A DNA stretch of 50,115 nt, filler included, from Catajapyx aquilonaris (lineage: Eukaryota), in the NCBI GenBank assembly GCA_000934665.2. It is 2 parts of 2 records of this genome, joined end to end, with 100 filler letters (N's around TTAATTAATTAA, not from the genome) between each part and the next. Parts side by side here need not be neighbours in the genome. Positions count along the whole stretch, not along the records: positions 25,168 to 50,115 come from JYFJ02005436.1; 1 more part is not named here. One strand, given 5' to 3'. The notes beneath the pieces were generated by a model. That model was not told where the DNA came from. It worked only from the letters and a program-made list of their open reading frames with translations, and searched no databases. Shown here one piece after another: positions 11,849 through 42,664 of this stretch. The translations under genes were made by a program, and so were the position numbers. Numbering within the stretch: position 1 is the stretch's first letter; every line of letters starts with the position of its first letter.

Positions 11849-14070
11849 ATGGGGGACACAACGGAATGCATGCCCAGTAATTCCACTGCGGAAACCCTCC
11901 CACCGCCTGACCCGACCCTTGACCCCGCACCATCCGGATCACCGAAGCACAGCAACTGCTTGATATGTGCAACCAAGATCCCGGCCTCAATGCGAGTATG
12001 CTGCAACATACTCTGAGAAGGGAAGCAGATGACCAATGCATCCTGCAAGCCATTGCTTGGATGGCTGGGAAACCTCCTTGGCGTTCTGCTGAGTCAGACA
12101 GAGGCAAGGTTGCACATGGTGTGCCAAACGTGCTTCCAGCTGCTGAAAGGCATAGACGTGGTGGAGGTCAGCCTGGAGGCCATGAAGGACGCCATTCGCT
12201 GCAAGTATAACGGAAGCGTTGGGTTCTGAGAGAAGTTGGAGAGCGGACAGCCGGATGCGGATGAACAGGTTAAGGAAAAGGTGGTCAAAGGAAAGGTGTG
12301 CAGACAAGCACAGAACCAGCCTGAGGTTGAGACCAGTGCGTGTGAAAGCTGCACGGATGGGCATCTGGCGGATGGAGACTTTGATTTCGATGTGGACGAA
12401 GAGGATGATGAGGACGAGGAGGATGATTCGAGCGGTGGCAACCCTCCACCTGAAGGAAATGGTAGGATGAGGTGCCACAAGTGTCCGCGCTCCTTCGTGT
12501 GGTCCAAGTGGCTGTCCGACCACATGAGTATGGCTTATGGCGATGGCCTGTATGCATGTGAAGTCTGCCCGGCCGAGTTCGACCAAGGTTCATTGCTCCA
12601 GTCGCACCTCCAGGAACCTGAAATCTATTCATATGCTTCCCCTGCGAACAGAGCTTCCAGGTCTGTAATGTAGCTTTTATGAAATACTTGTACGAATTTG
12701 CTTATTGCAGGACCTATGCAAGTATCAAGACCATACGAAGAGACACTGGTGTCGTAAGTCCGGTGCGGTCGTTGTGGACACATGTTCTACAGCCACCGGA
12801 TGCTGCAGCATCATGCGAACGCGCACGATGGCGTCCGGCCATACCAGTGTCCCGTTTGCACCTCAGCGTATTCTGTCCATAGCTGCTTGAATGCTCACCG
12901 CAAGGTTCACCAGCAGGGGGTTACGCCTGCTCACTGCCGGTTGTGCGGAAAGGCGTTTTTGAACAATCATCTCCTGAAACAGCATCAGAAGGCACATGCT
13001 TCGGAGCCGGATTATACGGTGTGCCAGCAGTGCGGGCGAGGTTTCTCCTCAGCGTATGCATTGGAAGTTTACCGGATGTCCGCACACTTTGATAAGCGTC
13101 CATTCCGATGCGATTCATGCGTTAAGACTTTTACCCGCAAGGAGAACTATGGCACTCATTTGCGGACGCACAAGGGTGAGAGTCTGTTCCAATGCGAGGT
13201 GTGCGGTATCCTATTCTCGCAGCTATCCAACTTGCGATTGCACAAGCGTGCCATGCACTATGATGACTGCCGGTATAGATGCTAGGCTTGCAACATTGGT
13301 TTTAAGAGGCATCGCCTGCTGGTCTACCACAACAACAGGGTCCACACAGGCGAGCGTCCCTACAAATGCAAACAGTGCAACATCGCCTTCATCAACCCAA
13401 ACCACTACAAGAAGCACCTCAAGAGCCACACGGGGGAGAAGCTACACAAGTGCGAGATCTGCGGGAAGGCGTTTAATTCCCGTGACAACCGCAACACCCA
13501 TCGGTTCACCCACTCTGACAAGAAGCCCTACAAGTGCAAGGTGTGCCAGAGGGGCTACATGAGGAAGTCCATGCTCTATGCGCACATGAACGCCAAGGGG
13601 CACTTCCAGGACATCATTATCGTCAGCGAGCTGCAGATCCACCACGTCGACAGTGCAGAAGAAGCGGGATTAAGTGTGAAGCAGTACGATGTCGAGGTAA
13701 TCAATTTATTTAATTACATATTTTTTCAACATTTACCCGATCCTATTTTAAACAGTAAAAATATCTTTCCATGCAGGTTGGGCAGAGTCAACCATTGAGG
13801 GCCTGGCTGTCGCCAAAGGCAACCCAGGGTATTCAGCCTGCTTTGTCATAGTTGACGGCCTGCAGCTGTAGGCCATGGAGGAAGCGGGGGATGGTATTCC
13901 CATGGACGATATTGCTGCCGGTCCAGAAGTTGATGTGGTAACGAAGAAGGGTGGCGTAAAGTGTGAAGACGGCAATGTCAGAGTGAAAGCAGAGGGGTGA
14001 GGTGTCAGGGCAGTGGATCGTATGCATCCTGATGCTGCTTAAAATAATCCTGGTGCTTTTCGATGGATGA
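11849..14070 (+). pseudogene. ZAD (zf-AD) + C2H2 zinc-finger array transcription factor pseudogene, intron-retaining
   Basis: ZAD-like VCQTCFQLLKGIDVVEVSLEAMK and many C2H2 fingers with TGERPY/TGEK linkers. In-frame stops at 12227 and 13283, frameshifts near 12615 and 12750. Introns 12661-12710 and ~13697-13777. Confidence 0.85.
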
Positions 14071-14649: not shown

Positions 14650-16998
<2,349 letters not shown>

Positions 16999-17504
16999 GT
17001 CAGGGCATCAGGGCTGCAACAATATGGTAGGCCACATGTTTAGAAGCAAAAGTGTAGTGATCTAGTGATCCTGATGATCAATTAAGATCATGTGACAATG
17101 AGCACGTTAGTTTCAAAGAGGCGAGGAGTTAGGTGCATGCCTGTCCGTAATTGTGGCACAGGCGCGACAAAATATAATGGATCATAGTGATAAGTGATAG
17201 CACAGGTGCGTCTAAATTGTATGCACCCTAGGTTGTGGTCCTATACTATAATCCAATATTACTTTTTTGTTGCTTTTTTATATACACAAATACAGTATTA
17301 TTATTACTGAATAGGGGAAAAAAACGTATGCACTGCGGTATGTAGACAGTGATAGTAATTAATCAGGTGTTTGACCTTGACCCCCCTTCTTTACAGAAGA
17401 GACCACAAAGCAATGGCGTGTAGATAGATATACAGGGTGTTCCAAAAAGGTGTTCCCAGTACAGAACAAATGCAGTTCCAGAAGTATGCCATATACTTTA
17501 TTCT

Positions 17505-19637
17505 TTGCCTTTTCCAACTTCTGCAGGACCACACGCAGGCGCTCATCGTGTTCGTCTGTATTCTTTCCCCACACGAGACTGTCATCCATGTGGCAGACCA
17601 CATCTTCAGCACCTTGTAGCATGTCTCTTATGCGACGAGAAAAGTGTTCTGGGGCAGATGTGATTCCAAAGGGAAGTCTATTGAACCTGTACCTCCCAAA
17701 TTGAGTAATGAATGTTGTCAGGAACTTCTCTCTGTCCAATGGCACCTGCCAGAATCCAGCATTGGCATCGATCTTACTCAATCTTTTAGCCCCTGCCAGT
17801 TGCCCTCGGCCCTGGGGTGTGCTCTATTACTGGCAATGGAAACCTTTCCCTGTTTACACTCCTGTTCAACAGCAAAAAGTCAGCACATATCCTTATCTGC
17901 TCTTTTGCTTTGGGTGCTATAACCATAGGAGCACACCACTCTGTGGGCTCTGTCACTGAAGTTATCACTCCTCGTTGGACCATGTTCTCAAGTTTGGTTT
18001 TGCCTTTTTCCAGCAAGGGTATAGGAATACACCTGGGATTTGTCAAGGAATAGGGTGCTGCTCCAGGTTTAAGGGCAATTTGGTATTCCGCTTCCAGCTT
18101 CCCTCTGGTGAACAAGGATGGAAATTCTTTCTCTGGGTTCAAGGAGGTCAGAGGTGAGGATGTGAGTTTATTTAAGTTGGTTACTAGGGCCACTTGTTTG
18201 ACCACATCCAATACCCGCAGTGCTGGTTTGCCTAGTAAAGGTGACGTCAGTCCTTTTACCACATACACTTCCTGCAGGATTGTCTTATGGCCCTTCTTCA
18301 GTTCAGCATGCATTACCCCAACAACTTTCAATGCTCCCTGGTCTGGCTCACTTAGCTGTCTGTCAGGATCCAGCAACTGCTCTCTTGCAAACTTCTTGAG
18401 ATACACTTCCTCTGGCCGTTCACTTTTATGTCAGTTGTCCAGTCCATGTACTTATGACTTGTGGATCCCACCTTCCCTAAGAACCCGCATTTCCCTGTTC
18501 CTCTTGGGTAACTTGACACACTTTTGCTTCACTGCGACACACTCGGACATAATGGCATTTCTTACCACACTTTTTGCACTCACAGCTGGGCAGTCCTTTT
18601 GGTCATGCTGAGACCATCCATATCTCGGACACTCTTTACCTTCCCCTTTGCTTGGAGTCACCTTGGGTTTGTTGCTGCTCACTCTGGCAGATTTCACCCA
18701 TGGTTTAGCCCCACTGTTGGACCACTGGACTCTGTCCACTTGTTGTCCTCCGTCATGGACCCTCAAACTGACCTGCTGTTTCTTTACCTCCTCTGACTGT
18801 CTGGCTTGAAGAACTGCCTTCTCTAATGTCAGCTTTCTGTCCAACTGCAACCTCTCAGACATCTGAACATCTTTGATTCCCAGTTTCCCACCACTAGCCT
18901 ATCTGGAATTGTGTTATCGTAGCTGGCGGGAAAGTCACATGTTTCTGTCAACGTGTGAAGTTCTGTGATGAATATATCCACCGTTTCTGTTTTGATTTTG
19001 TAATCTGGTGTTGAATACAGCCCTCTCATAGGTTCTTCTGACCACAAAATGGTCCTCCATATGCTGAATCACTAGCTCGTAGTTACCTTGTTCTGCTTGA
19101 CCCAACTTGAATGACTGGAATGTCTCTTCCGCTTGTTCACCCATAAAGTAAATTAGTGTGTTTACGTGTTCCATGGAGGTCTTACTGCTCAGGCCACTGG
19201 CAAATCGGAATCGGCCATAGCGTCGTTTCCACTTTGGCCACTCCCCAGGCACGCCAAACTGGAAAGACCTTGTTGCCAGTATCTGGTACATTGCTCCTGT
19301 GACTGTACTGCCTACTCTGTCTCCTTCCACGGCCATTGTTCTTTGTTGACCTCCCTCAATACGGTCGATACTATCACCGTCACTCATACCTCTTCTGTGC
19401 TCTGCCGTGACCCACTGCTGCATCTATCTTCGACACGATACTGGCTCAGGAGTGGCCCCTCCTGATGCTCACCTGTACTTATCCGGGATCCCTACCCAAC
19501 TGCCACCATGTTTCATAGGGTTCGTTTTGGGGCTCCAAGGAACCATGTCTAGTCAGATCAGCCATCTTGTGTGTACCCCCTTTACGTCACACGCTTATTT
19601 ATTTCCAACCCTGTACGTATTAATACATATCACAACA
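17505..19637 (-). mobile_element. Truncated, decayed Ty3/Gypsy LTR retrotransposon (K02A2.6-like gag, protease region, RT) with candidate 5' LTR
   Basis: gag WPKWKRRYGRFRFASGL, LTLEKAV; RT PTEWCAPMV, IRICAD, SKIDANAGFWQV, RLPFGITSAPEHF, HMDD; several frameshifts. Candidate LTR ~19441-19637 begins TGTTGTG. RT is cut off at a TA-CAGGGTGTTCC MITE end (~17433-17504). Confidence 0.88.
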
Positions 19638-31612: not shown

Positions 31613-31712
31613 TTAGTCGTCCTTGCTCTCTGGCGACTTGTCTCCATTGCGCTCTGGAGACTTGGAGCGGGACTTGTCACGACTCATGCTTCGGGAGTGT
31701 GACCGGTCTCGG
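31613..31712 (-). CDS. B52: B52 terminal coding exon ([32 protein letters not shown])
   Basis: ttctgtag|C CGA...GAC TAA. Candidate AATAAA signals on the minus strand near 29672-29688 imply a roughly 2-kb 3' UTR. Confidence 0.9.
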
Positions 31713-34700
31713 CTACAGAATAACAAGACATGGCAATGTCAGAAAAAAGGATACGTGAAAATGGGAATACTGACAATTCCACAATTACTCCTAGATCAGG
31801 ATGCACATAATGAATGGGCCATGAGAAGGTACAGGAAAAAAGCTACCACTCCAGACTATCATTATCAAGAAACATGCTGTTACAACACCCTAACCGAGAA
31901 AATCTTCGACTTATGACAATCCTCACTACAATATTAAATCAGACTCGTTCAGAAGAGGGAAAGTTGTGCGAACAGACAAAAAAACTGAAGCATTAGAGTG
32001 GGTTTTCACTAATGCAATGTTGCATCATTTCATTATCCATGGCTTTCTTTGATCAGTGAAACAGTGATAACATTTAGCTTATTTTCTGGACTGTGATTTC
32101 ATGTCTTTTTTGAACACTCCTTTTCACAAATTTTCGCTGCTCAACAAAAATAGGTAAACAATTAGTTTGCGGCAGCATTTGAAGAATCACTAGAAAAAGT
32201 ATATACTCTCTATCTTGGATCATATGACAGTACTCAGCTGCATCTACAGTAGTTGACTTTAGTTCATGCACTAATAAATGCAAAAGAATTAAGGGTCAAA
32301 TTTTAGCAACACAGTGCCACCACTGGTGCTGCTAAGTTAGCAGTAACTAGCAGTGGGATGATAATTCCACCCACATTTAACATTTAATTTCAAGTTTAAT
32401 TAAATTAATTTAAATTAAAAGTAAAATCCAGCAAAATACATCACATTCTTAATGGATATACTTCACAATAGAACTTCTTGTCCATCACCTACATGTAATA
32501 TAGCCTTGCTTAGATTTATCGTTTTCAATAATAAAAGCATCTCAGAAATCATTTTACTATGCTGTCAAGTCAAACAATTCTACCCTAAACTAATGATGTT
32601 GAAATTTGTTCCAAAAGTTGACATTCTTGCCTGCTAAGAAGCTTACCAATCAAACCATCCCAGTGAAAACTGACCTGGACTTGGAGTGATTCTCCTTAAG
32701 TGGCAGAGGAGATCTCGACCTGGAGTGAGATCTGGACTTGGACATGGGGGTCTTCGACTTGGACTTGGACCTCCCCCTGGACCTGGACCTGGACCTGGAC
32801 TTGGAAGCATCAGCAGCCCTCTCTCGATCCCTATCACGGTCCCTGTCCCGACCACCTCCATCCCTGTCACGATCCCGATCTCTGTCCCCACCTCTTCCAG
32901 CCCTGGCATCACGAGGAGACTTGCTGCGGCTGCGGCTGCTGTGCCGGCTGCGGCTGCGTCTTGGGCTGCGACTGCAATACCTGCTTGTTAATGCACTTCA
33001 TAGAGCCAACGATTTGGTTAACGCTACAATATGCAAGTTGAGTGGACTTACCTTGACCGTGACCTGGGAGAACGAGACCTGGAACGGGAGCGGCGGCGAG
33101 ACCGGGATCGGGAACGTGATCGGGAGCTGGAAGAGCGGGAGCGGCGGCGGCGGCGAGTATCCTCAACCAGGCGAATGCGACGTCCACTCAGATCAGTGTC
33201 ATCTAGTTTGTCAATTGCATTCTTCAGGTCCGTGTAAGTGGCGAACTCTACCACCCTGTCATACGAGAGAATAGGATGGCTCTTATTACACAACTCACGT
33301 TAAAACCATCAGCCTTACAGCTGCCCTAATGCATTAACTATGGTGATCACATTCCAAAGGAACATACTTCACTCTGTCAGATACTCCTTGAGATTGTAAA
33401 AGGGACACGGCACTTGATTTGCATATCAGGCGGAAAGTCAACTCCAAATGTACAAGTTTGGGGCCGTACACATATTACGTCATCACATTTTTGAACCCCC
33501 ACCCCCCAGGTCATACTTTGTCATCATTTGGCAACCCCCTCCCCCGGTTTCTGGTTGGTTTATTCATCTCAACTTGGACCCCCCCCCCCCCCCCCCCCCC
33601 CCCCCNCCCCCTCCCCCTCTCGCCATCTTTAGTCATCAGGTAGCAAATCTCCTCCCCCCTTCGATGATGACGTAATATGTGTAAGGCCCCCTTTCTCGAA
33701 ATTGCAAGGTAAGCCCAGGTGAGGTACATTCGGAGAGAAACCCACTATATCAGGGCTATTCAACTGGCGGACCGCGACGATATACAGGCTAGTTTGAAAT
33801 AGCATTAGAAAATACTAATTCATGATTTTTTGGAAAAAGTGCTACCAATTTCATCACATACACACCCATTCAAATCTCCCACATTCACTTAAGCTCGTTG
33901 ATTTTGAACCCCCCAAAAATTTAAGCCTGCGGCCGGATTGCTCTCAGCCCTTTGCGGGTTGTTCACCTTGTGCTTTTGAAATAGGGCCCCCTCCGATATT
34001 TTTTCTGCCTGCGGGCCTGTACAGGACATCAGAGAGGGTGAAAATGTCTTGATAGGCCCTTCTACCCCTGCTGCACATGTTTCTATTTTCAAAAATGAAC
34101 CCTGTGGTACCATATAAAATCCATATCTTTACACTCGGGGAGGGGGGTGTGTGTGTGTGGGGGTGGGGGGGTGGGGTGGGGGGGGTTTGTTGTTGGGGAA
34201 AGAGGTCCGGACCTTCAATGGCCCAGGAAAGGTAAATACTGGACCTTGTCATAAACTAGTTGAATAGCCCTCCACTATACAGGGTCGACCAACTTCAAGT
34301 GTCGTTTCATAACGGCGATTAATAGCAGTGATTTTGCGATGACGTAGCAGCGACGTGTAAAATGTCCCACTTCGGCGCCATTGAAAATATTAGCTGCCAA
34401 TAGCAGCACACATGTAATAAACCCTGCTGCTGGGTTGACCTGGAAAAAAGGAGGTGCACACATGACCTGCGATGCGCCTGGGTGACGTCCAAGGCACCAG
34501 ATGGATTATGGACCTGTAATGCAAGGGGGAAGCCTGCAAACGAAACACAGCTAATATTTTCGATAGCACCAAAGTGGGCCATTTTACACGTCGCTGCTAC
34601 ATCAATCGTAAAGTACTTCTATTAATAGCCGTTATAAAACAACACTTGAAGTTGGTCCACCCTGTATATCTTGGTTCTGGTGTTCTGCCTACAACTACAA

Positions 34701-36231
34701 CAACTACAAAGAAGGTAAAAACCTAGAAATCCATTCTCTAATTATGTACGAAAGTGCATCATATCTTAATATCAATTATTTACATATGAAAAGCACAAGC
34801 ACCTGAATAATATTTCCTTTACCAGTGTAATGTTTTTAATGAGACAATGTTCACTTCACTTGGTACCCTCACTTTCTCTTTGGAGCATGCATGGAAATTT
34901 GAAAGTAGGAGGTGCCAGACGTGCATTCTTGGGGAACCGCTGGCTATGGTATGGTAGCAGTGATGTTATTAGTGAAAAAATTAATAAAACACACGTACCC
35001 TTCATTTCGACGCTGCTTGTGCGCATCAGCGTAAGTCACTTCGCCGGCCTGCCTCATGTAGTCTTTCAGGTCCTTTGGCAAGAAAAAAGCAAGAAGCAGC
35101 AACACATTAGAAAATTGCATTCAAGGCATGACACGCTTAGATGAGTGCCATAAATATATTTAGAAAAGAAAAGAAAAAAATCCTAACTTCTTTCTCACAT
35201 AACCTAGTCTGCCCAAGCCCATAATTGTAACACCTCTGTGGTGCCTTACGTATGCACCCAGACTAACCAAACAACTGAGGGAAAGTGCACCTGCACAAAG
35301 TGCATCAAAGAAAATCTGTGCTCTAGTGCCACTTATAAAAATCCCATGCAATCAGCTGTCAAATTCACCTGCACTGTATCTGTCAGTCCTATAATTTAAA
35401 TACCCTGCAACTATGTATAACCCTGACACCCACAAAGTTGATTCGTCAGGAACAGTGACATCTGTGCAATGACAGAAGTGAAAAAGTAACAATGACACAG
35501 ACAAATAACTTTTAGAACTCCTTTACGGATACACCTTCAATGGAAATAAAATTATAACGGCTCTGGCAACATGTGAAATCAACAATCTTGGAAATCCCTT
35601 CCGCTGGTTCTACAAGTCCTAAATGTATGCTGAAAAATTTTAGTGCGAGCCCATGAAATTGCAAATTCACAATATCCCCATAATACACCAACAGGATAAG
35701 AGGACTTCACACGTCAGGAATAAAAGGACAATTTTTGTCTCAATGATTTTCCAGTGACTTAAGTGTGGCACAACCTATTTAGGTCAACTTCTCATTGTGA
35801 AAATTGCAGAAGTGGCTCTTAGGTTCCCTCTTTGCACAGCAAATACACAATCAATGTCAAAGCCCAGCTCGAGACAACTTATGAAGTGTTTTTGCAGGTC
35901 TACACATCTTTCATAAACTTGGGTCACAAACCTTTCGAAACAGCAATTTAGTCCCACTAAGTTAGTTTGGGTGCTGTTCTTATCAATAAAATTTCTATGA
36001 GTAAAAGTAAACATGCCAAACAGGCAGTGTGCACAGCGAAACACTTTCGCTGGACACAATCGCCATGTGACTAAGAATTCTTATCTCAGAAATGTACAAT
36101 ACATAAAACAGTGTATAGTTATATAGATAATTATTATATATAGTGGCTGTTGGTGTGCATTTACCTTGGGGCCCTTGCGAGAGAGGCCCGGATTGCGAGG
36201 CCCTGGAACCCCCACATGGCACGGTAGGTAG

Positions 36232-36262
<31 letters not shown>

Positions 36263-39200
36263 TGGTAGCAAGGGGGGCACCCCCTTTTGGACCCTTGGAC
36301 ATTCTCACACCGGGGGCTTAGAGGCCACAGACCCACAGACGGGGGGGAGGGACGGGACCCTCATCGCATAAAGAGGCCGCCAGACCCAAACACAGGCACA
36401 GGGGGGTTCGCTCGCTTTGTCTCCCTCGCTCTCTCTCCCTCATTCCTCTCTCGCTTTGCCTCGCTTACGGACCAGTCGGCAATACAGACCGGGTTGGTGT
36501 AGGATCATGGAATGGTTGGTTGGTACGCTTTTTTTGGCAGTAGTAGTAGGCGGGGTGGCCCTCACACCATTGGCCACCATTGGAACCTCCGGGTCTCAGG
36601 TCACGTCATCGGACAGCACACGTCAGGTACGTCATGGCCTTCTAAAAACGACCCCCTTTTTTTACTCCCGTTTTTTTTTTGTTTTTTGTTTTTTTTTTGG
36701 TCGGGCAAAATAAAGGTTTGGAGAAAAAAAAGGACCTGCAGCCCCCTTTGATAGGCAGTAGTTCTCTACATACAGAAATTCAAAATTGACCCGGCGCCTA
36801 TGTCATTAATAATTCCTGTCAATGAATACTCTCATAACCCTATGATATGCCCAAAATCTATATCCGACTTTTGTCTCCTCAGGGGGGCGCAGGTATAAGA
36901 GCCCTTTCTTCAAAGAAGCACTGTTAGATGTTCAGCACTTGCCATTTGCAACATCTTTTCTTATAACTGAGAAGGCATCTTACCTACCCCCCTTATTTTC
37001 TCTGCTGCTGGTTACATGTACCTTGCAATATTGACTCCCTCAGGAACAGTAACCATGTTCACTGAAGGAATCAAAGCAAGTCCATTACAGATTTCATTAG
37101 AAAAAAAATAACATGTGCAAATATGACTTCTGTCCCTACTAATTGAAATCAACGTAGGGTAGGGTGGATATAAAAGGCGGATACTTAAAACCAATGCCGA
37201 TTTTTCCCACATACCTGCCAGCTGACTCGACTTGACAGGTTCTCCACAATCAGCCTATACTCCGTCCTAGTCGGCGGGCCATACCTACAGATGGTTGGAA
37301 GAAAAAAGAGGGAGAAGGTAATCCACACCTGTCGAAATCATGCCCCACTCGATGTCCTTAGGAAGGGAGGATAAGGAAGTGCATGTGCCCCAAAAACATA
37401 GCTGCCCTTAGGTAGCGTCTTAGGGTGGTAAAACAGGCACCTCATGCAAGTTGCAATGTGGGTGTGCAGGTGCAATAGGTTAGAGCAGGACCCGGTCACT
37501 CATATACCTTATACATTGCTCCCCCTGTGAGCTTCGCTCTTCTCCCCCACCAGGGGGGTTTGCCACAGCGGCGCTGGGATCAGAAGCCAACGTAAGTGGT
37601 GCCACCACTAGCCTGGAGTACTACAGCCAATCGGAGTCGACCGAAAGGTTCAGAATTGACTAGTGGCGGTGCCACCTATGTTGGTTCCTGATCACAGCGC
37701 CACCGTGGCAAACCCCCCCCTGTTAGGGGAGAAGAGCTTAAACTCTCACAAAAAGGAGGGGAGTGGCCGCCACCTGGGTTAGAGAGTCCCCTCCTAGCTA
37801 AAATGGCCACCCCCTAAGCAGTGCAACTGGTCCCTTTTCCCTGCAATTTTGCATGGAGGTGTGGGGTAAGCGCAAAGTGAGTTGCAATGTGGCAGACACG
37901 GCTGAATGACTCGTCTGAGCAGCAGGGTATCTACCTTGTTAATTTTGGATGGGAAGATGTAATCCTTGGAATTATTTGAACTTTCAGATGGCCTATTTTT
38001 GATGCACTTCATACTTTCAATGAGCTCATTTTTAAATTCAGCTATTGCAACCACAGGGCGCAAATGGAACATTAATTGCATTTGTAGTGGCCAAATTATT
38101 TACATCTACTTCATTATTGTCCCTCTTTAAATTCTGAATTTATCAAAATTACTCAATTTACTGTTCTCAGCACACAATATATCACCAGTCTGTCAGCCTG
38201 TCCTTGACTTGGCTTCCTTTAATTCATGAGTCCAGCAGGGCCATCCTCTCCCCTATCCATCCCTCTCATCTCCCTCTCTCCTGTTCCCCCTCCGCTGGTG
38301 CCTGAGGCTGATAGGACATCAAAATTTCATATTTCCCAGATAGCGTCAGCAACAGGGGGGTGAAGATGCGGGGGTCACTTGCAGCTGGCTGCAACAACTC
38401 ACATCAAGAGTCCATGTTAGCTCCTAGAGCAAAATGGCAGGAGCAGAGCTGCCAGTTGCCAAGTCACCACAGGAACACCCCCTTTTGCACCAAGCACCCA
38501 TTTTACAGCCCTTAGATTGCAAGTATTGCAACTACCAGTGTCAACTACTCAAGACTACAAGCCAGCTGTATAAACACAAATCAAAGGAGTAAAATCCCCA
38601 GTAAAATCTCCAATTATCTCGATTACATACCATGATTACCTATATGTAATCGAAGGTTTTCCCATTTTGCTCTGATACAACTGGCCCTCATATACTGTTA
38701 ATCACTTTATATAACTCTCACCTCATGCTTTGTTACCACAGGTCACAAAACTATTGGGCTTGTAATTACAATACTTGTTTTCTAAAGCCCCAAGCAGACT
38801 AGAAACACTTGGTATTGATGTTTCACAAGTTCCCATATTTCAAATGTACCACTCAAGAGCCCACTTTGTTCTGGACATTACATTCAGTTCTGCAGGAATA
38901 TACTTTTTCTGCTCCTGGGAAAGAGCCTGTTGTGGGCAACGTAGAGGCAATCAAATCAAGACTGAATGGACTGCAGTGGCTCCTCTGGCAGCAACAACGG
39001 GAAGCAATCAACCATTTCGAAGGTCCAAAACAGGTGGGCTGATATAGTGGGAGGAAGGCATGCCAAACAGGTTTCATCTTCTGAGGTTCAGGAATGGGGG
39101 CTGGGACCTTTTCACCACCAAGCCTTTGGGGGATGCATATCCACCATGAGGAGAGCCTGTGGTAACACCTCAAGGAAACAACTATGTCTGGAATGGAACA

Positions 39201-41723
39201 TCTGTACCCAGTGTAGGTAGTCTGCAATGGCCTTAACATTCTGATGTGCTCCATGGATCCTTTAAAATGTAACCTGAACTCTCATGAACTAAACTTGGGT
39301 TTGTTGGGGATTCATAAAATACCTTACTTTTATACAGTAGAGCCTCAATTACCCAAACTTATTTCCTGGACATCCTTGTAAGGTCATTTATCCCAATTAT
39401 TTACAAAGTTCTACTATACATGCAGGCATGCTGCATATTTTTCCTGTCACTCCCACAGGTGTTGTGCCTATCAGTGAGTCACACAAACACTGTTATGGGC
39501 ATAGCTTCTGTACAGATTAACATGTTTAAACTAATCTTGCACTTCCTGCAATACACAATTCCCCCCACTCGCTATGCCCAGCTTTCATATTACCCTGATA
39601 TTCCCCATTTCATTTAGAATTGATAATTATTGCGCCTCTACTGTAAACGAGACTCAAATCCACTGTTGAATGCATACAATGTTCCTCCCACCTAATCCTT
39701 CTTAACACAATTCTAACAAAGCTACATTAGATCAAGCGAATCTCGGCTCTACAGGGTTAATGACACCTGGAGGTCAAACACATGACAGCAGCTGGCAACT
39801 CAAGCCCTGGTTGAAAGTCCCAATAGTACTCTCAACCATGCATGTTTGAGACGCCCGGCATTTTTCTCTCTCTGATCTATGCCTGCATGTCTCTTTTCCC
39901 AAAACACTGCTGAATCCCCCTCATCGCCCTAGCAGTCCGGTCTTACTTTTCAGCGGCCCATGTTCGCCACCTCGGCGCCGGCTCGCTGCTTCGCCTGCCC
40001 CTCCAGACATCACTGCCCCTGGGCATCCCTCTCGCTTTCTCTACTGTAACCCTGAAAAGGCCCAAGGAGAAGGAAAAATGGGGGTAGTTGGGATTGCATG
40101 GTAGGTCAAGTTATGGGTGTCAGGGGGGGCAGGATAAAAAAGGAGAGGGAAGAGGGAACAGAGTGTTAGTCCGAAACTCTCCTCCCTGACGTTCTTACTT
40201 GTCCATCCACGAAGCTAAACGGCGTGCAGACCCAAAGTTTCCTCCTCTGTCGCCTCCACCACTCCCTCCGCCTCCGCCACCACCTCCTCCTCCTCCTCTC
40301 TCTCCTCCACCACTTCCTCCGCCATAGCCGCCGCCATAGCCACCCCTCCGGGCTGTGCCCCGGGCATGTTCCACTACCACTCTGCAACGGGCGCAACAAA
40401 AAGAAAGACAAAAACAGGGAGATAAAAGAGGGGGTGATGGCTGGCTCTGGCTGTGTTTTCTTTCTCCCCTCTTCCCTTCCTCTTCCCAAACATGATCATA
40501 CACGAAAAAATCATGAAATTCTCCATCATTCACTGTCTTGAGCATCAGGTGAATAATAATTCCTGATTTAGGTGGAGCGACACGTAAGGAAAAGAGGCAG
40601 AAAGAGGAAAGATGTGAATCCCACACCACATTGTCAGCAGATTGGGTACAGAGTATTCTGTGACATTGAGATCACCCACGACAATCTTTTACCCATTTGC
40701 CAAATGAACTTGAAACAGAACATTGTCAACAAATAATTCTTCCTAGATATTGTGTACTAGTGATCAAAAGACGATTTTGCACTGAAGCGAAATTCAATAT
40801 TATTTCAATCGTTTTGAGTGATAATAGTACTAAGAAATTTTATGAAACAATTTAGCATGGCTGCTCAGAGAGTAAGGCTGTCCTCAGATGAGAAATCAGA
40901 CCCGAAAGATGGTTACCATCATTGCAACCATCAATATACGTGCCAACTGACTTTAAAAAATCACACAAATGAATCGCCAATTCATGCCCTACCTTTCGCC
41001 CAGAAGCTCCTTGCCATTTAGCTCATATACAGCATCGTCGGCATCCCTGTAGTCATCGAACTCCTGTGGAATAGAGGAACTTTGTGCATCTCCTTCATTT
41101 TTAAATCGCACAATTCTAAAAGGACAATCCCTGGCTAATGAAATCCCAGTTTGGTTGCTCAGAACGCGTCAGGACATGAAATACTTTCCACAAGTTTAAG
41201 ATTCAGTCTCGAAAGAGCTCATCACGGCAACCTATTTCCACACCTCAGAAGATTAACTGTACTTCATACAAAATTTACAGGAGGATCACCATCCAATCAA
41301 AAACCTTTCCCCTCTTCTAGCATCTGAGTTGTGAAAAAACTTCCCCCCAAGTCTGTACTTACAACAAAACCATAACCATTCTTGATGAGAACGTCTCGAA
41401 TGCGCCCATATCCCTTGAAAAAACGTTCCAGGTCTTTTTCCCTCACTCCATATGGAAGGCCTCCAATATACACCCTTGTCCCTACCATTTCGTTGCTGCA
41501 ACAAGTTTGAGGTGGTAAGGAAAGGAACTTAGGTCAGGGCTGGGGAGGACAGAGAGAAAAAAAAGAGAGGACAAATTAGTATCCCAGTGTTTGCACTTAC
41601 CACAAATCCATATCCATTCTTCAGCGAGATTTCCATGATTCTACCATATCTGCGGAAGAACTTCTCAACGTCCCGTTCGCGCACCCGCTTACTTAAGCCA
41701 CCAACGTAAACTCTGGTTCCCAT
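31613..41723 (-). CDS. B52: SR splicing factor B52/SRp55 (SRSF4/5/6 family), multi-exon: RRM1, linker, RRM2 (SWQDLKD), RS domain
   Basis: Manually spliced GT-AG exons: 41723-41601 or 41488-41363; 41063-40993; 40381-40199 or 40051-39947; 37284-37215; 35072-34999; 33255-33052; 32971(or 32980)-32675; 31712-31613 (TAA). The 41488+40381 isoform totals 1125 nt (374 aa) in frame. Motifs [72 protein letters not shown] closely match recalled Drosophila B52. Confidence 0.96.
32675..32971 (-). CDS. B52: B52 RS/RD-rich exon
   Basis: Open RS/RD repeat frame; two in-frame acceptors 9 nt apart (32980, 32971); donor AG|gtcagt. Confidence 0.9.
33052..33255 (-). CDS. B52: B52 exon, RRM2 end and RS start ([32 protein letters not shown]...RSRS)
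   Basis: gacag|G GTG...AG|gtaagt, 204 nt. Confidence 0.95.
33460..33690. mobile_element. PIF/Harbinger-like MITE in B52 intron
   Basis: GGGGCCGTACACATATTACGTCATC / GATGACGTAATATGTGTAAGGCCCC. Confidence 0.7.
33751..34271. mobile_element. hAT-like MITE in B52 intron
   Basis: AGGGCTATTCAACT / AGTTGAATAGCCCT; flanking 8-mer CCACTATA on both sides. Confidence 0.7.
34280..34664. mobile_element. Tc1/mariner-type MITE in B52 intron
   Basis: TA-CAGGGT...ACCCTG-TA; ~115-bp TIRs. Confidence 0.8.
34999..35072 (-). CDS. B52: B52 exon, RRM2 ([25 protein letters not shown])
   Basis: ttcttgccaaag|GAC...GG|gtacgt, 74 nt. Confidence 0.95.
37215..37284 (-). CDS. B52: B52 exon, RRM2 start ([23 protein letters not shown])
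   Basis: ctgtag|G...CAG|gtatgt, 70 nt. Confidence 0.95.
37526..37750. mobile_element. Foldback MITE in B52 intron
   Basis: ~85-bp imperfect inverted arms. Confidence 0.7.
39947..40051 (-). CDS. B52: B52 alternative RRM1-end/linker exon B ([35 protein letters not shown])
   Basis: ttttcag|G GTT ACA GTA GAG AAA GCG AGA GGG...GAA AA|gtaaga, 105 nt, phase 2 to 2; homologous start and end to exon A. Not in the ORF track. Confidence 0.88.
40199..40381 (-). CDS. B52: B52 alternative RRM1-end/linker exon A ([18 protein letters not shown]...WMDK), Gly-rich
   Basis: ttgcag|A GTG...AA|gtaaga, 183 nt, phase 2 to 2. Confidence 0.92.
40857..40931 (-). ncRNA. SNORD2: Box C/D snoRNA, SNORD2/snR39B-like, copy 1 (B52 intron)
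   Basis: Minus strand: stem ATGGTTGC, C box ATGATGG, guide ACCATCTTTCGGGT then D' CTGA, D box CTGA, stem GCAGCCAT. The guide is complementary to the conserved 28S rRNA ACCCGAAAGAUGGU; the layout matches recalled human SNORD2. Confidence 0.88.
40993..41063 (-). CDS. B52: B52 constitutive RRM1 exon ([24 protein letters not shown])
   Basis: cag|GAG...AG|gtaggg, 71 nt, phase 0 to 2. Confidence 0.95.
41153..41232 (-). ncRNA. Box C/D snoRNA candidate (possibly SNORD96-like)
   Basis: Minus strand: GGTTGC stem, perfect C box GTGATGA, D' CTGA, D CTGA, GCAACC stem; about 90 nt upstream of the 41063 acceptor. The D guide CATGTCCTGACGCGTT partly resembles the recalled SNORD96 5.8S guide. Confidence 0.7.
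41363..41488 (-). CDS. B52: B52 alternative first coding exon B ([42 protein letters not shown])
   Basis: Own acceptor (cttgttgcag|caacgaaATG) and phase-0 GTAAGT donor at 41362; close to the recalled canonical B52 N-terminus. Confidence 0.93.
41601..41723 (-). CDS. B52: B52 alternative first coding exon A ([41 protein letters not shown])
   Basis: Own acceptor (ttatcttcttcaag|aaATG) and phase-0 GTAAGT donor at 41600; RNP2 and RNP1 start present; 123 nt. Confidence 0.9.
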
Positions 41724-42081
41724 TTCTTGAAGAAGATAAAAGGACTCTTATCAGAAAGGGGAAAGTAGGTACTATTACACGTACGGTTTTGATTTCCATA
41801 TTTCTTGCAAAATGGGAAGCTACAGCTAACTTAAGCCTATGTTTTAAGCCTATGGTACACCAAGTGTACTTTTCCACCTAACGATAAGACTCTTTGATGC
41901 TTCTTCAAGACGTGAGTTACACAACAAAATTATCAGTTATGACCCAGATTTCCCATCTATAAAAACCTAAGAGCACTTTCTATTACTACACATTAATCTG
42001 ACCACACTATGCTTACCAGTAGGACAGTAATCTGGTAATTATGGTGTGCAACATCAACCAGTCACACACAATGACAATGTT

Positions 42082-42156
42082 ATGGTTGCTCAGCAAATGT
42101 ACTTCTCCTCAATTGAGAAATCAGACCCGAAAGATGGTTACCATCATTGCAGCCAT
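42082..42156 (-). ncRNA. SNORD2: Box C/D snoRNA, SNORD2/snR39B-like, copy 2 (B52 5' intron)
   Basis: Identical C box, guide and D' box to copy 1; diverged 3' half; terminal stem ATGGCTGC/GCAACCAT; D box at 42090-42093. Confidence 0.88.
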
Positions 42157-42664
42157 GATCATTATAAGTAGCATGCTGGCAAAACTCTAGCCAGTTTGAA
42201 AAAATAAAGGCATAGACAAACTATCCAAGTAGCAGCTCTCCAAGCGTCTATAAACTTGTTAAACGCAAGCTTAGAAAAATGCTCATTTCACACTCGCACT
42301 GGCCTTGTAGCTAACTGCCAAAGATTTTGCACAAACTTGCAATCCCAACTTTAAAGGCATAACTGAATAGGTACCGTCTAATTATTAAATAACACTGCCC
42401 AGTTTCATCCATCTAAGGGCCGCTCCACCAATGCAGCTCTGGGAGAACTGTCCTGAGCCGCAGTTCAAGTCTGAGCCATGAGAATCAGCAGCTCATCTTT
42501 GAAATGCAGATCATGTGAAAAGAGCCACCACATTGTAGCCAGGTGCAGCATTCAAATGTTTGCATTTGGACTCGTATTTGAGTATCTCCAGTTGAATCTT
42601 TCAGCTTTTAACTGAGTAGTGGTTTTTACTCATTTCACAATGTTTGCCTTAAGATTTACTAAGC

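Follow-up and report, generated by a model that had tools for sequence, protein, structure and literature searches.

How many different splicing regulators can be made from one gene if two regions of its RNA-binding half each come in two versions? The question is raised by a locus in Catajapyx aquilonaris (GenBank assembly GCA_000934665.2). It lies in a stretch of 50,115 nucleotides (nt), which we call the window. On its minus strand, positions 41725..31613 hold one complete serine/arginine-rich (SR) protein gene of the B52/SRp55 (SRSF4/5/6) type. The gene opens with two tandem start exons (A and B), continues with a shared exon (M) and two tandem linker exons (C and D), and ends with five constitutive exons. 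We consider it probable that the locus is a single B52/SRp55 gene and that splicing picks A or B and then C or D. The outcome would be up to four SR proteins of 350 to 377 amino acids (aa), with a second, atypical RNA recognition motif (pseudo-RRM) and an arginine/serine-rich (RS) domain in common.

Two results carry this reading. First, all four combinations are open: A-M-C encodes 376 aa, A-M-D 350 aa, B-M-C 377 aa, and B-M-D 351 aa. Second, for both pairs, isoforms annotated in insects have orthologous alternative regions. In particular, the RefSeq isoforms of the wasp Diachasma alloeum show all four combinations: B+C (X12, X9), B+D (X10), A+C (X7), and A+D (X5, X11). An earlier note on this DNA had predicted up to four variants of the first RNA recognition motif (RRM1) and linker, and had suspected that the arrangement is not unique but conserved among insects; comparison supports the first reading, and the second is correct. 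Public annotation already shows the arrangement in several insect orders and in Lingula, and the Catajapyx locus is a further orthologue.

Gene layout and family membership

The exon borders that had been proposed are all present in the sequence. The features of the gene are as follows, with a slash marking an exon border.

41601..41725, minus strand: exon A, 125 nt, alternative first coding exon, ATG at 41723, phase 0; acceptor ...cttcttcaag/, donor GTG/gtaagt; encodes residues 1 to 41 of RRM1, through the first half of the RNP1 motif
41496..41600, minus strand: A-B intron, 105 nt; 112 nt separate the end of A from the ATG of B
41363..41495, minus strand: exon B, 133 nt, canonical first coding exon, ATG at 41488, 42 residues, phase 0; acceptor ...cttgttgcag/, donor GTT/gtaagt
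40993..41063, minus strand: exon M, 71 nt, shared; 23 residues and 2 nt, the middle part of RRM1
40199..40381, minus strand: exon C, 183 nt; last RRM1 strand and a Gly/RGG-rich linker, with SWMDK at its end
40052..40198, minus strand: C-D intron, 147 nt
39947..40051, minus strand: exon D, 105 nt; last RRM1 strand and an Arg/Trp-rich linker
37215..37284, minus strand: exon E5, start of the pseudo-RRM
34999..35072, minus strand: exon E6, in which the SWQDLKD motif is completed
33052..33255, minus strand: exon E7, end of the second RRM (RRM2) and start of the RS domain
32675..32980, minus strand: exon E8, RS domain; an Arg-Asp repeat lies between RS stretches
31613..31712, minus strand: exon E9, last coding exon, stop codon TAA at 31615-31613

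Throughout the gene, acceptors are AG after a pyrimidine tract and donors are GT; the donors are gtaagt in A and B and gtaaga in C and D. The peptide of exon M is unchanged in many orthologues. We considered whether the paired exons might reflect an assembly artefact or two paralogous genes, and rejected this: the gene is continuous, with a single set of downstream exons.

The product has the domains of an SR splicing factor akin to SRSF4/5/6, as the earlier note had it. The N-terminal RRM is canonical, with both RNP2 and RNP1 (VY[VI]GGL and KNGYGFV/EF). The heptapeptide SWQDLKD, which marks the second, atypical RRM, spans the E5/E6 joint, and the orthologues match the Pfam family RRM_1 twice. 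Exon E7 matches positions 44-70 of RRM_1 with 17 bits, which is under the curated cut-off of 20.7 bits, as expected of a fragment. The RS domain of an SR protein has at least 50 residues and more than 40% RS content. The C-terminal tail of the Catajapyx protein has 170 residues, of which 61% are Arg or Ser, and 70 of the 170 (41%) are in RS or SR dipeptides, so it qualifies as an RS domain. Named relatives in the protein searches were almost all SRp55, B52, or SRSF4-6. The best full-length match is between the B+C form and SRp55 isoform X12 of Ischnura elegans (257 of 322 aligned residues identical), and the peptide of exon B is identical to that isoform at all 42 residues. By these matches, the source is an arthropod, probably a hexapod or near relative, and is not one of the species represented in the database.

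The two exon pairs and how each choice might be made

Exons A and B had been described as homologous, each with its own acceptor and a phase-0 GTAAGT donor, and this description is correct. Their peptides are identical at 26 of 41 residues (63%; BLASTP E value, 5e-19), and their DNA is identical at 89 of 151 aligned positions, flanks counted in. Both match positions 1-44 of the 70 positions of RRM_1, with 31.9 bits for A and 37.8 bits for B. Since both end in phase 0, they are interchangeable in phase. They differ in the loop and the helix that follow the first strand, and both keep the two aromatic residues of the RNP motifs.

The note had also suggested that, because of a frame shift, nonsense-mediated decay could enforce exclusivity of the first exons. 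The frame argument holds for this pair. If A and B are both included, the frame shifts, a TGA arises across the B/M joint, and translation stops at codon 86; because of this stop, we infer that A+B transcripts in Catajapyx would be removed or non-productive. It does not hold for the second pair: because the lengths of C and D are both multiples of three, the frame cannot enforce a choice between them. Including both gives an in-frame product of 412 aa, and skipping both gives one of 316 aa.

Whether A can be joined to B at all may differ between Catajapyx and other insects. In Catajapyx, the A-B intron contains a pyrimidine tract and motifs that resemble branch points (CTGAC and CTTAC, 38 and 20 nt before the B acceptor), and by these signals A-to-B joining looks feasible. 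In 10 database proteins that read through the spacer, A is separated from the ATG of B by 12-52 nt, as against 112 nt in Catajapyx. Given the minimal size of insect introns, 12-52 nt is too short for splicing A to B, so in these other insects A-B joining would be impossible.

These observations raise the alternative that exon A is mainly a regulatory 5' exon: placed ahead of B, it would yield a dead-end frame of 85 codons and lower the output of SR protein. SR genes commonly autoregulate through unproductive splicing, and both the stop at codon 86 and the 105-nt intron, across which splicing looks feasible, unlike in insects with spacers of 12-52 nt, would suit such a role. However, a purely regulatory role would not require conservation of the protein sequence, and exon A encodes an intact half-RRM that scores above the Pfam cut-off. 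Over 41 columns, its peptide is 83% identical to the nearest A-type exon (lgn04, from P0004) and 73% identical to the A-type exon of Timema. Furthermore, A is joined directly to M in 16 database proteins (A+C or A+D). We therefore regard a mainly regulatory exon A as unlikely; regulatory and coding roles could coexist.

As for what might control exon A, its acceptor lies in a 40-nt inverted repeat (41725-41764 with 41871-41910, minus strand) whose arms are 73% complementary and 106 nt apart. The acceptor, its pyrimidine tract, and the preceding CTGAT would pair with the upstream segment. The minimum free energy of 41715-41920 is -62.8 kcal/mol (z = -5.3; 0 of 200 shuffles were as stable), for a stretch that was picked after the repeat had been noticed. 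The repeat arm occurs once in the window. From this predicted fold, a hairpin over the acceptor could gate the use of exon A.

Two copies of a C/D box small nucleolar RNA of the SNORD2 family lie on the gene's strand, at 42084-42154 and 40859-40929 (51.6 and 45 bits; gathering score, 37), and have a 37-nt identical core in common. One precedes the exon A acceptor by about 360 nt, and the other lies within the M-C intron. Because of the upstream copy, the DNA 5' of exon A appears still to be intron, which suggests that an untranslated first exon should lie beyond 42154.

Exons C and D both begin and end in phase 2. Both open with the last strand of RRM1 (VVVEHARG in C and VTVEKARG in D) and then diverge. 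Of the 61 residues of exon C, 29 are Gly, and there are three RGG motifs; the 35 residues of exon D include 7 Arg and 3 Trp, which fits the earlier description of a Gly/RGG-rich and an Arg/Trp-rich version. Excerpts of one study (PMC7813835) state that RRM1 of SRSF1, SRSF4/5/6/9, and Drosophila B52 favours cytosine, that this preference is set by Glu87 in strand 4, and that the linker between the RRMs restrains their relative position. The Glu of the last RRM1 strand is kept in both C (VVVEH) and D (VTVEK). For this reason, the choice between C and D probably alters the length and flexibility of the linker (and with them the spacing of RRM1 and RRM2) and the sites for RGG methylation, and not the base specificity.

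If the frame does not keep C and D apart, the C-D intron might. There is no AG over the 123 nt before the D acceptor, which is the longest AG-free zone among the gene's 10 acceptors, and a CTAAC is found 33 nt downstream of the C donor. A branch point near the upstream donor, combined with a long AG-free pyrimidine tract, is a classic steric block to the joining of neighbouring exons. Exclusivity of C and D may thus rest on a branch point near the C donor and the 123-nt AG-free pyrimidine tract. CTGAC and TTGAC, nearer to the D acceptor, are alternatives to CTAAC as the branch point, so the steric block is a candidate mechanism.

We also considered two other mechanisms. Incompatibility with U12-type splice sites was rejected: all donors are GT-type, and a second class of splice sites was not seen. 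As for competing RNA pairing (docking and selector sequences), which the note had proposed to look for, there are inverted repeats near exon C as well as at the exon A acceptor. Those around exon C pair purine with pyrimidine runs (40146-40163 with 40460-40477, and 40149-40161 with 41305-41317), and we did not count them as evidence: they are low-complexity, come from one genome only, and have no comparative support. When we scanned 39801-42400 for stable folds with 200-nt sliding segments, 1 of the 49 was a clear outlier (40451-40650, minus strand; z = -3.9). Its predicted fold, located 70-270 nt upstream of exon C, joins a pyrimidine tract to purine-rich sequence.

Comparison across species

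The search with exon A found 24 proteins at E ≤ 0.001 among 28 candidates, and the search with the end of RRM2 found 69 proteins among 84 candidates, many of which are RefSeq isoforms of SRp55. A model from Timema poppensis reads from A through a 17-residue spacer into B and then M, which is the order in Catajapyx. Similarly, in isoforms X2 and X3 of D. alloeum, A is bridged to B by 13 residues of read-through spacer. Both A+D and B+D forms occur in Orussus abietinus, and B+C and B+D in Athalia rosae. Isoform X2 of Tribolium castaneum, a Coptotermes model, and a Graphocephala transcript are A+D; a Lygus transcript is B+D.

A tree of 35 first-exon peptides (42 columns) separates the two types. 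Exon A of the window groups with all of the insect A-type exons, that is, the alternative first exon of SRp55, and with two other sequences (support, 96/97). Exon B groups with the B-type, canonical exons (support, 94/90). The first exons of spiders and lophotrochozoans lie outside both clades. On this placement of the peptides, the A/B duplication is older than the split of Catajapyx from neopteran insects. One difference within the A type is that exon A of the window has KNGYGFV where neopteran insects have KNGFAFV.

A model from Operophtera brumata (P0113) has two B-like first exons in tandem with one residue between them (MVGSRVYVGGLPFG... and then MKGSRVYVGGLPHG...). Either A was homogenised towards B in this moth, or there was a separate duplication in Lepidoptera.

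The linker pair seems to be older. C-type linkers (Gly-rich, starting with ARG(T/V/P)..R and ending with SW.D) were found in the window, in Ischnura, Diachasma, and Athalia, in isoform X2 of Lingula anatina, in an Amblyomma transcript, and in some further proteins. D-type linkers (ARG.PRG.D.[WY]R) were found in the window, in a termite, beetles, bugs, wasps, and spiders, in Lingula X1, X3, and X4, and in Paralvinella and oysters. The Lingula proteins are RefSeq isoforms in which a C-like linker (X2, ending in RRPSWID) and a D-like linker (X1/X3/X4, with ARGVPRGED) are swapped at one position, and a gene model of Ridgeia piscesae has C and then D in tandem. From these similarities, the C/D pair seems to be no younger than the common ancestor of arthropods, annelids, and brachiopods.

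To see how the exons are combined, we tallied 252 fetched database proteins, which were classed by our own motif rules; the way in which they were fetched biases the sample, and it includes many predictions. The tally gave 1 protein with A+C, 15 with A+D, 20 with B+C, and 15 with B+D. A truncated JGI protein (P0052) has an A-type start (KNGFAFV) and a C-type linker, so A+C has been seen twice. A and B occur together in 7 proteins, by read-through of the spacer only. Among the 92 proteins whose linker could be classified, 29 have only C, 60 have only D, and 3 have both. By these motif assignments, all four combinations are on record and one of each is the rule; strict exclusivity, or coupling of the two choices, is not proven by the tally.

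Several points weigh against the reading that splicing in Catajapyx picks one exon from each pair. To begin with, we found no RNA-derived run for Catajapyx, so exon use there is judged by comparison. The RefSeq isoform sets rest on junction evidence and may merge choices that never occur on one molecule. The groups in the exon tree were named after the sequences had been viewed, and the alignment has only 42 columns, although the split is clean. Within the C-D intron, further candidate branch points are found 68 and 54 nt ahead of the D acceptor, which makes the steric block only one of the options. The claim that C and D are homologous phase-2 exons stood as to phase, but BLASTP gave no alignment between them. 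Inside the window, their likeness is limited to the V.VE.ARG start, the common phase, and the similar donors, so from the window alone the case for homology would be weak; it comes mainly from the orthologues and the V.VE.ARG start. The second half of the exon D peptide is not close to any orthologue, and a word-based protein search with the 55-aa open reading frame of exon D returned four candidates, none of which scored. Lastly, three proteins have C and D together in frame (from Mycetomoellerius zeteki, Cotesia congregata, and R. piscesae), and one model (P0109) has neither. Because of these four entries, exclusivity of C and D is unproven even elsewhere.

The same four entries suggest another possibility, namely that C and D are independent cassettes, and that the 412-aa form with both of them and the 316-aa form without either are normally made as well. 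With lengths that are multiples of three, neither outcome would disturb the frame. On the other hand, the three C+D entries are gene models from genome projects rather than RefSeq isoforms, exactly one type is present in 89 of the 92 linker-classified proteins, and a C+D protein would carry the last strand of RRM1 twice. Independent cassettes thus seem improbable to us.

Could A, D, or both be relics that are no longer spliced in, so that Catajapyx makes the B+C form alone? The lack of RNA evidence is compatible with this, as is the fact that B+C is the form that best matches the Ischnura protein. Loss in particular lineages also seems to occur. In the dipteran proteins that we retrieved, only B+C is seen, and a beetle-like fragment (P0138) runs from an A-type exon through 20 residues directly into M, without B; from their sequences, these hint at reciprocal loss of alternative exons across insect orders. 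The tail of exon D is poorly conserved, too. But in exons A and D alike, the reading frame is still open, the AG acceptor has a pyrimidine tract, and the donor is GTAAG. Exon A sits inside the A clade without a long branch (its end branch is 0.12), and exon D keeps the 19-residue start that defines its type. With this much preserved, we think it very unlikely that either exon is a relic.

The only sequencing run that we found contains low-coverage genomic contigs of the same or a nearly identical organism. These contigs map to introns with no differences (for instance, at 40431-40690 and 39442-39593), and none of the 8 listed contig joints is at an exon border.

Taken further, these comparisons would allow a history in which a protostome ancestor already had the C/D switch, the A/B pair was added in an arthropod lineage, and reciprocal loss followed (B+C in flies, A+D in some beetles). 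The surviving choices would be coupled, with A mostly accompanied by D, to give two functionally distinct SR proteins from one gene. We offer this history tentatively and regard it as doubtful.

Elsewhere in the window, the intron between E6 and E7 contains at least one N at about 33.5-33.7 kb, beside a simple repeat that would encode proline and glycine (repeats at 33570-33605). Judged by their text alone, the long open frames at 17359-19423 (minus strand) resemble a retrotransposon, with stretches that read like reverse transcriptase and gag. A frame with multiple C2H2 zinc fingers (12758-13798, plus strand) and an AAA-ATPase-like frame with GPPGVGKT (15560-16147, minus strand) each probably belong to a neighbouring gene.

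What the locus means and how it compares with known systems

The result for the window is itself ordinary: an expected orthologue with the expected exons. Its wider interest is that SR proteins set splice-site choice across the genome, and that nearly all work on B52, the insect member, has been done in Drosophila. In most other arthropods, the gene seems to yield up to four versions of this protein, which differ in the RNA-binding surface and the linker. In that case, what is found in flies may not hold for other arthropods, and species with both switches would allow direct tests of how variation in RRM1 and the linker affects the choice of targets.

Our searches of the full-text literature turned up no paper that deals with alternative or exclusive exons of invertebrate B52, SRp55, or SRSF4-6 genes; subscription journals and supplements were not covered. 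In the excerpted text of PMC8086120, b52 appears only as a high-SR gene, and in that of PMC3245913, B52 is covered only as a regulator. The main text of PMC9741552, on tandem exon substitutions in humans, does not contain the terms SRSF or U2AF1. That the retrieved dipteran proteins show only B+C may explain the silence of the Drosophila literature; D. melanogaster was not among the proteins retrieved.

The closest counterparts are the SRp55 isoform sets of other insects (Diachasma, Orussus, Athalia, Tribolium X2, and Ischnura X12). These are from the same gene, with the order A-B-M-C-D and the same alternative regions and borders. They differ from Catajapyx in two ways besides the KNGFAFV of neopteran insects. 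The A-B spacer is shorter in the insect read-through models, as described above, and the SRp55 genes of Hymenoptera and Odonata have small optional exons after C/D, which we did not find in Catajapyx: among 85 frame-compatible AG...GT segments between D and E5, none had the expected composition and a pyrimidine tract.

Drosophila B52/SRp55 and its dipteran orthologues belong to the same family, with RRM1, the SWQDLKD pseudo-RRM, and the RS domain. As in Catajapyx, the dipteran orthologues have exon B and a C-like linker (VVVEPARGTARG...). However, the dipteran proteins retrieved (from Glossina, Aedes, Chironomus, Polypedilum, and others) do not include any A-type or D-type exons, and their linker does not have the SW.D ending of Catajapyx exon C.

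SRSF6/SRp55 of L. anatina (X1-X4) shares the other half of the arrangement. Its C-like and D-like linkers are at the same position as in Catajapyx, after ...GER. Unlike Catajapyx, it has a single first exon, of the MGTRVYIGRLSY type, with no A/B pair in the proteins examined.

Outside of this family, the nearest described analogue is U2AF1 (U2AF35), in which tandem duplicated exons (3 and Ab) vary the RRM-like domain of a splicing factor. Excerpts of PMC5224494 report long inverted repeats and an upstream stem-loop as regulators of these exons. In Catajapyx, an inverted repeat covers the acceptor of exon A. U2AF1 is a vertebrate gene with one such pair only, and its sequence is unrelated to that of the Catajapyx gene. 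As for the second pair, exons 2 and 3 of alpha-tropomyosin are an exclusive pair with a distant branch point. The C-D intron of Catajapyx has a similar look, but its branch point is predicted, and there are nearer candidates.

Finally, vertebrate SRSF4, SRSF5, and SRSF6 have the same domain plan as the Catajapyx protein, with RRM1, a linker, and a pseudo-RRM. In vertebrates the variation lies in separate genes; in Catajapyx, a comparable variety might come from the splicing of one.

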